64,000 nt of DNA, from NCBI GenBank assembly GCA_964016885.1, contig OZ024741.1:15624001-15688000 (forward strand), written 5' to 3'. Of this stretch, positions 1,668 through 58,295 are shown piece after piece (positions within the stretch are counted from its first letter, which is position 1; each line of letters opens with the position of its first letter). This stretch comes from Eledone cirrhosa. Lineage: Eukaryota. The notes under the pieces were generated by a model that did no database searches, was not told where the DNA came from, and was given only the letters and a program-made list of their open reading frames with translations. The position numbers and the translations under genes were made by a program.

Positions 1668-1975
1668 AATTGAAAAAGTGGAGAATAACATGGTCAACAG
1701 TACAAAAAAGGACATTTAGACAACTCTATCAGTGAAACAATTGTTAGACTGTAAATAAAACCCTTTTTTGTACTGTTGACCATGTTATTCTCCACCTTTT
1801 TCAATTGTATTACTCCAAGATAAACTTACATAGGAATACAAGTGACGTCATAAACTCGTCATCTACGTAAACCTCTTGTTGAGTCAAACAACGCCGTACG
1901 CTAAAACTATCCATAATAAGAAGTATTCCCGATCTCTAATCGGATTACCTATAACGATATCTTGTTATCCTCTAT
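1668..1975 (+). mobile_element. Short fold-back element, probable Penelope pLTR remnant
   Basis: ~44 bp inverted arms 1668-1711 / 1761-1806; spacer holds GAAAC-AATT-GTT (hammerhead 3' half) followed by AATAAA; flanked by (TA)n on both sides. Confidence 0.6.
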
Positions 1976-2089
1976 ATATATATACATATACATATATATA
2001 TATATATATATATATATATATATATATATATATATATATATAGAGAGAGAGAGAGAGAGAGATAGAGAGAGAGAGAGAGAGAGAGTATA

Positions 2090-3184
2090 TTGAAGGGCGT
2101 ATCTAACAGAATAAGTTCACTCTCACATAGTGAAGAGGCGTTTGACTCGCAGGCTGATTACTATAATGATGCCTTAGCTAGATCCGGCTTTAGGGACAAA
2201 TTGTATTATACCCAGGGAAATAATAGTCCTAATAGTAGCTCTACCAGTGTTGTTATAACACATAATATGTCCATTGGTAATAGAGGTGTCGCGAATGGGA
2301 GGGTTCTAAATGCCGGTGGAATGAACCAGCAGGGTACCATTAGTCTAAGTAATAGCAATGGTAGGCCTCGCAGCTCCCCGCATAAATTAGGTGAGCATAG
2401 TAACCGTAGAAATACTAATAATAATAATAGTGATGGAAATAAAAAGAATAAAAAGAATAGAAGAAGATTGAATACATACTTCAACTCGGAAGTGGCTATA
2501 AACATTCCTAGGGCCTTCTTCTCTGTGTTAGAAAGGAACTTCCCTCCCGGTAATAGGTACCACTCTATCCTCAATAAGAATGTTGTTAAACTTTCGTATT
2601 CTACAACCCAAAATCTGGCCTCTCATCTGGCCATTACTAATAATAGGAAAATAAAGGAAGGCCTGGACAACCTAAGCCTAGGGGAAAACACGGTAGTGGA
2701 CAGAGGGGGCCGGAACACAAGTGGTGATCATTCTGAGAATAGCATCACCAGAAATTGTAACTGTAGAAGGGCTTCAGGCTGCCCCCTGAATGGTTTCTGC
2801 CTTATTAGAAACATAGTTTATGCGTGTGATGTGGTAACTACGGCGTCCACTAAAACCTATATAGGATCAACCTCCACCCCCTTTAAGACCAGGTTTAACT
2901 CTCACCAGTGCACTTTTAGACACAATAAACTGAGGAACTCCACCTCCTTGGCAGCGTACGTCCACAATTTAAAAAATGCACGAACACATTACACACTTAC
3001 TTGGCGGCAGGTTGCTAAATCCCATCCATATACTCCTCATAATAGAGTATGTAACCTATGCCTTGCCGAATCCCACTCTATTATATTTGCTAAATGCCCT
3101 CTACTAAACAGAAAGTCAGAAATATTTTCCTCTTGCCCCCACCGAATATTAAGCTCTTTCTTCTACTTTAAACCTATTAGCTAG
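2090..3184 (+). CDS. Penelope-like element ORF C-terminal part: post-RT region, Cys-rich linker and GIY-YIG endonuclease (5'-truncated)
   Basis: RISSLS..F..Y.DAL.RSG; VKLSYS; CNC....CPLNGFCL..IVY...TYIGST...FK.RF..H; CNLCLAE; LLNRKSE....CPH. Confidence 0.9.
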   Translation: MKGVSNRISSLSHSEEAFDSQADYYNDALARSGFRDKLYYTQGNNSPNSSSTSVVITHNMSIGNRGVANGRVLNAGGMNQQGTISLSNSNGRPRSSPHKLGEHSNRRNTNNNNSDGNKKNKKNRRRLNTYFNSEVAINIPRAFFSVLERNFPPGNRYHSILNKNVVKLSYSTTQNLASHLAITNNRKIKEGLDNLSLGENTVVDRGGRNTSGDHSENSITRNCNCRRASGCPLNGFCLIRNIVYACDVVTTASTKTYIGSTSTPFKTRFNSHQCTFRHNKLRNSTSLAAYVHNLKNARTHYTLTWRQVAKSHPYTPHNRVCNLCLAESHSIIFAKCPLLNRKSEIFSSCPHRILSSFFYFKPIS

Positions 3185-5174
3185 CACTTCCTTAATTCTC
3201 CAGTTGGGCTATCTTGTGTAACTGTCTCTTATTGTGTGTAACTGTTTCCTATTGTTTGTCTTCTATGTATATGAGTCAGTGAGTGTATACGTATGCCTGC
3301 GGGAGAAGATTGATCTGGATATTGGGTGTACAGGTGAGTGGGTGTGTATGTTAATAAGCACCCCTGTTTGGCACAGCGGATGTAACCCATCCACGCTCGC
3401 CTACCCACCATTGGTGCATTGGTGGGTCTATCCCGACGTGTATCTTGCGGATCTGTACCTCTGTATGCGCATGAGTTATGATGTAATGTATCTATGTAGA
3501 GCGTGTACTGTGATATAGGCTGCAAAAATAGAAATCTAGCCTGTAACTGTGGGCGGACCTGTGCCATCTCGCCGTAAGCAGTAGATACGTGGAACATGTA
3601 CGTGTTGCCCTCCTATTCGGTGGTTTAAGATCTACAGGCTGACTTCTGGGAGCTCTCGCCCGGTGTTGTAGTCTTTCTAGCACGATCGGTCTTCCATATA
3701 TTGACGGTCGTTGTTATCATCCCAAAAGTAACGTTTTGGCCCCGATAGCCCTCCGTAGTTACTAACGGTCTGTGTACACTTGAATCGGGCAATGGCACGT
3801 GCGGACACGATTATCTCCGTAGGAATTCAATTTGATTTATTTTACTGCATCTCCTCGTATGTATTTATTTTGAATGTATTATCCGTGGTGGTGGGTCTTG
3901 CCTAATGTGGTATTTCTGTGTTTAATATCAGCTTTGACCCGGGTGTCCTACGCTGTGTGTGTGTGCGTGTGTGTCTGTGTATACATTTATATGTGTATGG
4001 GTGTAGGTGGTTGTATATGTCTGTATATAAAAATATATATATATGTATACCGCCTCTGCATATGCATGTGGTGTGTATATGGGCATATACGCGCAGAACA
4101 TATTGGTGTGTATAATCTTGAGATGTCCCAATGCGGTGACTTCATGATATTGGCTCTTGAAGCTATTTTTTATATATCTTTTGTATGCGCTGTTGAGTAT
4201 GCATATTAACCCGCCTGACCCAACTGTGTTTGCTTGCTTTCGGCTAGCCCGCCTGCACCCGCTTGCTTTCGGCCCACTTGTCTGCCTCTTGCTGCTGCAC
4301 GTGAATTCTCCTACCTTCCTTCGATGTACCTCTGTTGACCATTGGACTCCTGCCCGGGTGCGAACCGGTTTGTGATTACCCCACCGCTCAACTGTGTGAA
4401 TGCACACCCGTGACTTTCGAGTGAACTTTTGAGACTGCCCAACCTGGGACGTCTCCATTGCATTGCAATGGTCAAGTGATACTGATAACTGTGACACTTA
4501 GGGCCTTCGTGGGCCCCTGATATATTCAAGAAATATATTCTAAAAAAAATATATATCTTATCTCAATTTACTTTATTTTATTTTATTTTATTTCATTTCA
4601 TTTTATTTAATTTTATTTATTTAATTTTATTTAATTTTATTTAATTATATCTTATATTATATTATTTTATTTTAGTTTATTTTATTTTATTTTATTTTAT
4701 TTTATTTTATCTTATTTTATTATTATATTATATTATATTTTATTTTATATAATTTTAATTTTAATTTAATTTTATTTTATTTTATTTCATTCCTTACCCT
4801 GTATCACTATTATCTGTATATTTTATATGTATGTTTTTTATATTTTCTTATATATATTATATGTCTATTTTTTACCTATTTTTCACCTATTTTTTATCTA
4901 TTCTTACCTACTCCTATCTATCTTATCTATTCTTGTCTGTTCTCTTATCTATGTGTATGCTTGTATGTAACTATATGTTGACAGCACCCCGCCCAACTGT
5001 GACTGATAGCACCCCTTATTTTTCAATTATTTTTCAATGTTTATTTTTCAATGTTTATTTTTATTTTTAATTCCTCAATATTTTTTATATTTTTTATCTT
5101 TTATTATTTTTTATTCTTTATTTCTTCAATGTCTCGGATTTGTTATTGCTTGTGTGATATGTAATCAACCTTTA

Positions 5175-5220
5175 TGCTCTGATGAGTCCCACTTATAGTG
5201 CGGATGAAACAATGTTAGCA
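5175..5220 (+). ncRNA. Minimal type I hammerhead ribozyme
   Basis: TGCT-CTGATGA-GTCCCAC(ttata)GTGcGGAT-GAAA-C(aat)G-TT-AGCA: stem I TGCT/AGCA, intact core, GUU site. Confidence 0.75.
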
Positions 5221-56445: not shown

Positions 56446-56790
56446 ATATATATATATACATATGCTTGTGTGTGTATGTATATGCAGGTGTATGTTTGCG
56501 TGTGTGCGTGTATATATTTATTTAATCATTTGTATATTTATTTGAATATAATTTTGACTGGAACAAATTTTGATTCGATTTGTCCATGTAATATATATAT
56601 ATATATATGTATGTATGTGTGTGTGTGAGGTAAAGAGGGGGGGGGGGGTAAAGAGAGAGACAGTCTTCTTTTGTGTGGGTTTGTGTGCATCTATGTGCAT
56701 GTGTATGTGTTCATCTATGTGCATGTGCGTGCATGTTTTTGTATGTGTTTGTCTGTATGAGCGAAGAACGGTGCACACACACATATACCT

Positions 56791-56920
56791 ATAGTTTCAG
56801 AAGATCCCGTTAATCTGTTATTTTAATAAATATTTGCTCTAGGGGGCTAATATATTTGATATATATTTATCCTTATCGAGCCCTCTTTGGATTTTAGTCT
56901 TCACATTTATTATTATTACT
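56791..56920 (+). mobile_element. Internally deleted copy of the 12117-12410 family
   Basis: tagtttcagaagatcccgttaa joined to tctgttatttt; the remainder is the reverse complement of 12117-12230. Confidence 0.75.
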
Positions 56921-58006
56921 ATATATATATATATATATTTATATATATATAATCAGGATGGAACCAGTTTAAAACTAGTTAGACCATTACTCCAGAGAGT
57001 ACTGGATACTTGGTGTAGTAGAGTATGGTTATATTATAAAAAGTCGGGACCCGACGGCTGATCCGTTACATATACAGAGAGAGAGAAAGAGAGAGAGCGA
57101 GAGAGGGAGAGGGGAGAGAGAGAGAGAGAGAGAGAGAAAGAGAGAGAGAGAGAGAGAGAGAGAGAGAGAGAGAGAGAGAGAGAGAGAGAGAGCGCGAGAG
57201 AGACACAGAGAGAGAGAGAGAGTAAAAACCATTTCCAAAAAAGTATGTGAGGCCAAGGTATGTTTGAGGGAGTTGTATAAGTGAAGGGAAGAGATGACAT
57301 GTAGGGGAACTGTCTCTGTTAAAGACATTAGATGTAGGTCCATTGAAATGTATTGTAGATTTGGCAACGTCTATATATCATTTGTGAAGCTGGGGTTAAT
57401 AGATTATATATATGTATATAATATATACATATATATATATATGGGGGAGAATATATGTGTGTTTATGTGTATATATATATATATGTGTGTGTGTGTATAT
57501 ATATATATATATATATATATATATATATATATATATATATATATATATATATATATATATATATATATACATATATATACATATACATATGGATAGATAG
57601 ATAGATATATGTGTGTGTATATATCGGTGTGTATGTATAATATTTATTTTTCTCAGGAAAACAAATGAGAGAAATTCAGTAGAGCACCTGACAAAGTCTG
57701 CCTCTGAATTATTTCTATTTACATCACGTTCTTTCTTACATAGATAAAAACTACCAGTAAACTATGTGGCAGTATGTCTACGTTAGAAATACGTATATGT
57801 GTATGTATGTACTCACACACACACACACACACATTCACACATACACATACACACCCAACCATATATATATATATATATATATATATATATATATATATAT
57901 ATATATATGCTTAAAAATGGAATGAGGAAAAGAAGAAAGCCAGAACGGCGGGGTGGGGGGATTTTCCTCAAAGTGAGAGAGAGAGAGAGACGGAGACAGA
58001 GAAATA

Positions 58007-58295
58007 TTTAATAGAGACGAAGTCAGTGTTGCAGCATATGTACAAAGGCATATATAAGCTCGCATATCTGACGAGATGTCGAAAAAGAGTCGGGTCCCGT
58101 CACCTTGTTTGTAACCTGAGCTGATCGATATCAAAAGGATTGTGATATGCAAATAAAGATTGTACATATGGTGCAACACTGACTTCGACTCTTTAAAATC
58201 TATTTATACGCTGTACACTACAGCTGTAACACTGGAATACAACCCAAACTAAACCTCGTAACAACGTTGAGTGTTTCGAACTGTTGTTACAATTA
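58007..58295 (+). mobile_element. Fold-back element with degenerate hammerhead
   Basis: Arms ~58007-58044 / 58160-58197; GCATAT-CTGACGA-GATGTCGA...TCGATATC-AAAA-ggattgtg-ATATGC then AATAAA (58062-58157). Confidence 0.55.

Follow-up and report, generated by a model that had tools for sequence, protein, structure and literature searches.

Hammerhead motifs in the window and in the genome

The 64,000-nucleotide (nt) stretch of the Eledone cirrhosa genome analyzed here (contig OZ024741.1, positions 15,624,001 to 15,688,000; hereafter the window, numbered from its first letter) is dominated by microsatellites and retroelements. It holds a series of short fold-back elements with hammerhead ribozyme motifs and (TA)n flanks, which an earlier reading of the sequence (the original prediction) had divided into about nine families and linked to Penelope-like elements (PLEs). 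These families are designated A to I.

The window opens with the 3′ end and tail of a long family A copy (1–120, +), whose GIY-YIG open reading frame (ORF), 3′ untranslated region (UTR), and intact hammerhead lie just upstream (locus L123: ORF 6261–6974, ribozyme 7944). Family H follows with a short inverted arm (1664–1718, −) and an arm with a hammerhead 3′ half and a long tail (1715–1972, +). Family B contributes a 5′-truncated ORF for a CxCx5C linker and a GIY-YIG endonuclease with Hydra-type motifs (2066–3184, +), a 3′ UTR of ~2 kb (3185–5174, +), and an intact type I hammerhead (5175–5220, +), the element ending at ~5262 in (TA)n. Family C is present as part of an ORF-less, circularly permuted, retrozyme-type unit of ~432 nt (5340–5654, −) with an intact hammerhead whose stem III is palindromic (5486–5526, −). 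Family I, for which no coding master was found in the arms searched, has an arm without a tail that holds the ribozyme 3′ half (11729–11856, −) and an arm with a tail (11857–12012, +). Family E has an inverted arm with a tail (12118–12258, −), an arm (12253–12410, +) with a hammerhead at 12344–12394 that bears a family-wide U4-to-A core variant, and a second fragment consisting of a 3′ end and tail (56810–56922, +). The fold-back copy of family A comprises an inverted arm with a tail, truncated at the ribozyme core (13040–13234, −), a palindromic hinge (13234–13264), and an arm from the 5′ stop hot spot at ~13250 (13249–13473, +) with a hammerhead at 13367–13421. A decayed copy of the ORF-less, circularly permuted ~312-nt unit of family F (14325–14590, +) has its ribozyme at 14452. 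In family D, an arm starting at the 5′ hot spot of the family (33860–34016, −), with an intact hammerhead at 33898–33968, faces a head-to-head partner arm with a tail (34025–34153, +). Family G has a short inverted arm (58006–58046, −) and an arm (58048–58290, +) with a decayed hammerhead of long stem II (58062 to ~58150).

Both strands of the whole window were searched with a structure-aware descriptor of type I hammerheads. With an exact core, three matches were found, at 5175–5220 (+), 5526–5486 (−), and 33968–33898 (−), versus two in total across thirty dinucleotide shuffles in 200-nt blocks; these are exactly the three sites that had been named as complete hammerheads, and no other was recovered. 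The descriptor demands an exact core and a stem II shorter than 95 nt, so family E and decayed copies are missed. With one core mismatch permitted, the window gave six matches versus ten in the 30 shuffles (maximum three per shuffle), the additions being 12344–12394, 13367–13421, and a chance-like match at 4478.

The motif described as reconstructable at 13185–13421 is indeed present, but 13367–13421 (+) is already whole, with one core substitution; the family A core is intact in 90 of 117 arms. The core at 12344, listed as variant or degenerate, is a variant and not decayed, as U4-to-A is fixed in 70 of the 76 arms of this coding family, which has a long and stable stem III. Our literature search on hammerhead core variants and U4A, which reached few subscription papers, gave no relevant report. 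The ribozyme at 14452 is degenerate, being a decayed copy in a family whose core is intact in 26 of 32 arms. The one at 58062 is decayed too, the window copy lacking its GAAA, but it had been parsed to the wrong GAAA; the family G motif has a 58-nt stem II, and 10 of 25 loci pass the descriptor. The 3′ halves at 1734 and 11791/11861 are cut inside motifs with stems II of 78 and 61 nt, respectively. AATAAA, said to follow the ribozyme often, lies immediately downstream in only about half of the tested intervals (four of nine), and it overlaps the cut site in family D. Self-alignment confirmed the inverted partial copies at 1664–1810, 11729–11944, 12207–12418, 13135–13471, 33860–34070, and 58006–58199.

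The exact-core descriptor was also applied to sixty evenly spaced 10-kb stretches (600 kb) of the 3.0-Gb assembly, and 46 intact-core motifs (45 distinct) were found in 26 of these stretches, versus 0–2 in each of ten shuffles. Downstream (TA)5 occurs within 330 nt in 40 of the 46, versus a background of 26%. The motif frequency is thus far above that of shuffled sequence both in the window and in the sample. A density of ~75 per Mb corresponds to roughly 2 × 10^5 motifs per genome, a rough figure because the motifs cluster. With three motifs in 64 kb, the window is ordinary for this genome, and the genome is unusually ribozyme-rich. Among published counts, which were obtained with other descriptors, 4,000 hammerheads in coelacanth and 9,000 in Xenopus were termed remarkable (PMC4209133), and totals given elsewhere exceed 6,000 for a coral and reach as many as 120,000 for axolotl (PMC7229834).

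It is scarcely credible that the motifs are chance matches in AT-rich repeat DNA. Such a reading could appeal to folding, as four of five motifs folded as monomers no better than shuffled sequence (z −1.4 to +0.3; the fifth, z −2.2), and to Rfam, where the best 150 of 618 rows contain no hammerhead and consist of microRNA models on TA repeats. Unremarkable monomer folds are expected, since stem III is palindromic and these motifs are thought to act as dimers (PMC4209133). The excess over shuffles at both scales, the conservation of the motifs within families, and their position at element ends all argue against chance. The hammerhead motifs are real, and their cleavage is predicted from sequence.

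Further ribozyme-bearing sequences were observed in the window. A family that had been overlooked (cluster 26) has three arms and a tail at 1108–1485, truncated 3′ of the ribozyme, and another (cluster 23), very abundant with 15 BLAST matches in the 600-kb sample, has fold-back 3′ ends at 14899–15144. A doubly folded-back short element at 56040–56400 and 13635–13693 retains just the first half of the hammerhead core; a hairpin and then a TA tract come next, and GAAA lies ~30 nt upstream. It may represent a Naiad-type half core or a permuted motif, and no copy was found among the genomic loci retrieved for the nine families.

Coding families and Hydra-type motifs

Each of the nine window elements was searched in the genome; 40 candidates were scored and 25–30 loci fetched per search, so the counts are minimum values and the loci retrieved are biased in favor of the window copy. 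All nine families are genome-wide repeats, with first-look candidates numbering at least 1,176 (A), 1,077 (B), 2,711 (C), 741 (D), 1,705 (E), 2,191 (F), 1,692 (G), 2,900 (H), and 2,931 (I). Across 1.65 Mb of retrieved loci, 390 arms fall into 56 ribozyme clusters, 29 of which have at least two arms. Octopus repeat papers name Penelope as abundant (PMC13282606; PMC8967140), and the main text of the 2026 curated annotation of octopus repeats contains neither "ribozyme" nor "hydra" (PMC13282606). On hammerhead ribozymes in octopus, a literature search that reached few subscription papers gave only Craig et al. (2021) as relevant among the four papers listed.

At the level of families, the claim that only one is attached to coding sequence did not hold: GIY-YIG ORFs were reached on the upstream side in A, B, D, E, and H. 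Truncation of coding Penelope elements, which the original prediction had named as a refuting outcome, is what we found directly for these five of the nine families and indirectly for G. Family B is a classic long element with scattered 5′ ends; locus L121 holds a full-length, partially tandem unit of 4,629 nt with a reverse transcriptase (RT) and endonuclease ORF (one frameshift), and its tail continues into the following ORF. In family A, a query restricted to the 3′ part exposed longer copies: the copy at 1–120 is joined to its upstream endonuclease ORF through a 3′ UTR of ~850 nt, and six of 30 position-ordered loci reach the endonuclease of the family, at 86–91% amino acid identity. In family D, the endonuclease ORF is joined in L088 through a UTR of ~900 nt, and three of eight incidental arms are long. 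The ORF ends 1,057–1,131 nt upstream in three loci of family E and 1,091–1,103 nt upstream in three loci of family H, the latter by tblastn match. An apparent fixed 5′ end without long copies in A and D was an artefact of junction-containing queries and fell with 3′-only and pattern queries. Lack of a coding master, a mark of non-autonomous families and retrozymes, thus does not apply to A, B, D, E, and H. For family G, arms lie head to head with a decayed endonuclease in L394 and L398 (E 3e-12), and the same partner sequence stands beside G in L214, which makes the link indirect; a guessed upstream template for this family matched its source locus alone. As judged from sequence, most window elements are clipped, folded-back 3′ ends of protein-coding PLEs.

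These coding families carry the motifs of the Hydra clade. The family B unit in L121 has a single ORF with RT and, at its C terminus, a GIY-YIG endonuclease, and its protein has 1,641 homologs, most of those listed being ~700 amino acids long; among the 120 listed homologs of the window PLE protein, the only species-named ones come from Argonauta hians. The VRWR and SDKT motifs of family B (RWK-type; DKT replacing DKG) recur in the homologs. In the alignment, A, B, and D share a CxCx5C linker, CxxC and CxH flanking the conserved E and N, and no CCHH pair within the endonuclease; the C-terminus of E shows Hydra-type endonuclease features, and H and G were recognized by tblastn match only. Type I hammerheads in the pseudo-long terminal repeat (pLTR), with the core variant in E, and insertion in (TA)n are likewise as in this clade. 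Almost all Hydra families insert in (TA)n, and Hydra-1_Obim of Octopus bimaculoides bears a hammerhead constructed the same way (PMC8557442). Compared with the Hydra-clade C-terminal endonuclease-positive (EN+) PLEs described there (PMC8557442), the Eledone families share the RWx and DKT motifs, the linker, the cysteine and histidine residues around E and N, the (TA)n target, a type I hammerhead near the 3′ end with a short palindromic stem III, and 5′-truncated inverted copies with an optional tail. They differ in number, 56 ribozyme clusters versus the one octopus Hydra family tabulated in that source, and in their 3′ UTRs of 0.8–2 kb, the 2-kb UTR bringing the B unit to 4.6 kb versus "generally <3 kb." Tails are mostly 90–110 nt versus 30–40 nt, and stems II reach 58–92 nt. 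The minimal hammerheads of metazoan PLEs (PMC4209133) are likewise mostly single motifs on truncated elements, with opposite-strand pairs 100–700 bp apart, many sequence families per genome, and palindromic stems III that suit dimers; 4,000 and 9,000 were counted there versus ~2 × 10^5 here with another descriptor. As a side observation, the ribozyme of several clustered families is directly followed by a motif resembling a splice donor and then by a T-rich stretch, which is what the intron retained in the 5′ UTR of Penelope would lead one to expect.

Taken together, we consider it probable, at about 0.85, that the elements are hammerhead-bearing 3′ ends of many Hydra-motif PLE families inserted in (TA)n, five being clipped coding families and two being ORF-less families that likely share their enzymes. 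Several points weigh against this reading. The placement comes from motifs and not from a tree with reference proteins, and Pfam recognized nothing in B and, in A, no more than a GIY-YIG domain scoring below threshold. Family G has only the inverted, decayed endonuclease partner, and no coding master was found for family I in 22 + 11 arms, although longer members without an ORF exist.

Insertion anatomy and the ORF-less families

The proposed links to Penelope pLTRs and to inverted truncated arms are borne out by (TA)n sites, head-to-head arms, and an optional tail, which match the published PLE anatomy (PMC8557442; PMC3846280). Copies are 5′-truncated, with an adjacent inverted copy and a tail at one end, as in EN+ PLE insertions. 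The distance from the ribozyme to the first (TA)4 is bimodal in A, B, D, E, F, H, and I, and the two alternative 3′ ends lie 40–170 nt apart; family C is uninformative here due to internal TA runs. In the listed pairs of A, B, and D, it is common for just one of the two arms to bear the tail (examples, not a systematic count). The 5′ ends are scattered in B, E, and H, with the densest 7-nt window holding 2 of 24, 6 of 52, and 4 of 27 ends, respectively. In work with a purified PLE protein, both strands were nicked and extended, and synthesis on uncleaved RNA started from two tail-bounding sites (PMC11167929), and one-arm tails together with two-mode 3′ ends match this two-site, two-strand priming in vitro. 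Based on that work, the RT/GIY-YIG protein would nick both strands of a TA tract, two complementary DNAs (cDNAs) would be primed at the two tail boundaries, and their ends would join head to head, often via microhomology, with most cDNAs presumably stopping early and randomly in B, E, and H. Penelope of Adineta vaga (PMC3846280) and Poseidon of Anolis, studied in vitro (PMC11167929), share with the Eledone elements the head-to-head arms, junction palindromes, solo pLTRs, an initiator (Inr)-like pLTR motif, a tail between two RT starts, and uncleaved RNA as substrate.

Families C and F differ from the coding families in that the sequence after the ribozyme leads directly back into the sequence before it, as in circular permutation. 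A period of ~432 nt is seen in 35 of the 62 C arms (10 of the 24 incidental arms) and one of ~312 nt in 13 of 34 F arms, and tandem ribozymes were found in five C loci (432–491 nt apart) and two F loci (303–316 nt apart). The longest ORF starting with methionine has 66 codons, and no uninterrupted endonuclease was found upstream in 41 C or 18 F arms; the endonuclease matches that precede F in L190 and L204, and C in L039 and L088, are parts of neighboring elements. From sequence alone, C and F fit the definition of non-LTR retrozymes, namely, ORF-less tandem units with type I hammerheads. The proposal of a large ribozyme-bearing non-autonomous population is therefore partly upheld: the population is large and linked to Penelope pLTRs, but only C and F behave as truly non-autonomous, ORF-less units. 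Their closest kin are metazoan non-LTR retrozymes and non-autonomous Chlamys elements such as MRC1 (PMC7229834; 10.64898/2026.07.22.740005), with which they share ORF-less units of 300–440 nt, one type I hammerhead per unit, and the occurrence of monomers, partial tandems, and dimers. Cluster 13 (L339, L330, and L291) is a third tandem unit without an ORF, ~467 nt long and related to C in stem III and the tail hairpin. Upstream of the ribozyme, this unit and C have an octamer-type motif, a possible promoter signal.

Both families also end in (TA)n and form head-to-head pairs. By-eye inspection of 30 C loci gave 18 long, 10 short, and 2 other 3′ ends, and alternative short and long 3′ ends occur in F as well. 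A PLE origin and mobilization of retrozymes had been proposed from co-occurrence and pLTR phylogeny (PMC7229834; 10.64898/2026.07.22.740005); beyond the features described for non-LTR retrozymes in these sources, the C and F units show the PLE integration signature at dispersed sites. It is likely that they are mobilized by Hydra-type PLE proteins, and they may represent internally deleted, tandem pLTR-only derivatives that keep the signals needed in cis and are moved in trans. We regard it as improbable that they are instead circular-RNA replicons moved by RTE or another long interspersed nuclear element (LINE). Circular permutation and tandem ribozymes would suit a circular RNA template (PMC7229834), the window abounds in LINEs and includes RT ORFs of their type, and a LINE-like fragment likewise ends in TA tracts. 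The combination of two alternative 3′ ends and head-to-head arms speaks against such a mover, being a signature termed unique to PLEs (PMC11167929).

The 5′ stop of family A and wider context

Family A shows a sharp 5′ stop. An exact 22-mer at this site, in which the pattern left out one of four letters at position −7, had 1,689 genomic matches; among the first 100 listed in chromosome order and inspected by eye, 41 stop within 7 nt and 59 continue upstream, the latter ending at scattered points 18 nt to >1.5 kb away. Neighboring opposite-strand arms comprise eight long-long, six short-short, and no mixed pairs, indicating that short templates exist. On a weakly resolved tree built from 73 arms, the short ones are scattered among the long ones (21 changes versus 21.7 when shuffled), indicating that the stubs were made repeatedly and not by one mini-lineage. 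In family D, 31 of 44 arms, mostly query-selected, start within a 7-nt window, as do five of eight incidental arms. The available accounts of Penelope (PMC3846280) and Poseidon (PMC11167929) describe no population-scale 5′ stop common to ~40% of arms, and our literature search on strong-stop, run-off, or truncation hotspots in PLEs, which reached few subscription papers, gave nothing relevant.

An alternative in line with the non-autonomous population of the original prediction is that the short elements are independent families, comparable to short interspersed nuclear elements (SINEs), with short masters of their own. This is true for C and F, and the sharp 5′ ends in A, D, G, and I, the lack of mixed pairs in A, and the lack of an ORF in I would fit. 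As a general account, we consider it unlikely, because A, B, D, E, and H all have long coding copies, the short arms of A do not group into a clade of their own, and B, E, and H truncate randomly.

The preferred explanation for the A stop is run-off of the cDNA at the transcript start, which we judge moderately probable. In PLEs, transcription is known to begin within the pLTR (PMC8557442). In A, and probably in D, G, and I, many cDNAs would be primed at the tail near the transcript 5′ end and would run off at the transcript start in the pLTR, leaving fixed-length stubs produced afresh from coding masters. The stop sites of A and D resemble an initiator. Several observations count against run-off. 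The A-arm tree is weakly resolved, with seven of 70 branches well supported, and the stop sites of D, G, and I come mostly from query-selected loci. The A stop lies within an 8-nt palindrome at the foot of a predicted hairpin, and among the 41 short A arms there are nine symmetric joins, which annealing at the palindrome could equally produce. Stubs that end at a capped start should show an extra, cap-derived G, but unbiased samples gave no enrichment of it (A, 5 of 41; D, 0 of 5); its presence at the stop in 13 of 33 A and 22 of 38 D non-long arms of query-selected loci is attributed to selection on the window junction. A second A stop 80 nt further upstream (four loci) turned out to be a subfamily difference in the UTR.

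These observations leave a real, if smaller, chance that RT abandons a long template at the fixed stops, or that two cDNAs pair there through a palindrome or at the base of a hairpin, in which case the stops would not be transcript starts. A shorter palindrome is present at the D site as well, and junction palindromes have been read as self-priming (PMC3846280). Against this, 32 of the 41 short A arms are not symmetric, as they join either flanking DNA or a partner whose junction point varies, a palindrome of equal length located further downstream in A accounts for only ~2 of 82 ends, and short-long pairing is seen in none of 14 pairs versus ~7 expected if arms were independent. Separately, at the arm junction in L085, the initial 17 nt of family D are repeated four times in tandem, with an extra G before every copy, which may result from repeated template jumps at the RNA end or from local duplication.

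Several other features were noted in the window. Near-identical tandem segments at 16340–24110 and 34357–36352 (~2.5 kb × 3; 615-nt repeats at 99.9%) either arose by duplication very recently or are assembly repeats. Retrotransposons of the LINE type have long ORFs at 25528–28080, 30292–32616, 41961–43600, and 44436–46175, with RVT_1 matches for three of those scanned, and one is broken by a microsatellite that happens to preserve the frame. An abundant SINE-like repeat, which resembles octopus tRNA-derived SINEs, occurs at 6175–6850, 8296–9430, 47409–48090, and 59771–60094, with inverted pairs and tandem arrays of its 45-nt head.

Hydra-type PLE ends and two retrozyme-type derivatives are known kinds of elements, and no new element class is present. 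Features of note are how densely the motifs occur, the sharp 5′ stop, and the presence of a PLE signature in the retrozyme units. We tentatively propose, with slightly less than even confidence, that this genome combines ~2 × 10^5 intact-core hammerheads in dozens of Hydra-type families, the densest among the published counts compared, with two side-by-side routes by which a coding PLE gives rise to gene-less ribozyme repeats, namely, fixed-length run-off stubs and tandem retrozymes bearing the PLE signature. Short ribozyme-bearing ends are easily misfiled as SINEs, miniature inverted-repeat transposable elements, or unknown repeats. From the sharp stop in A, a transcript start is predicted at this site, which is relevant to the way in which PLEs assemble head-to-head insertions. 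Families C and F provide ready templates for the question of which enzymes mobilize animal retrozymes; if the reading is true, tandem units with the PLE integration signature would be sequence-level evidence that PLE enzymes move them.

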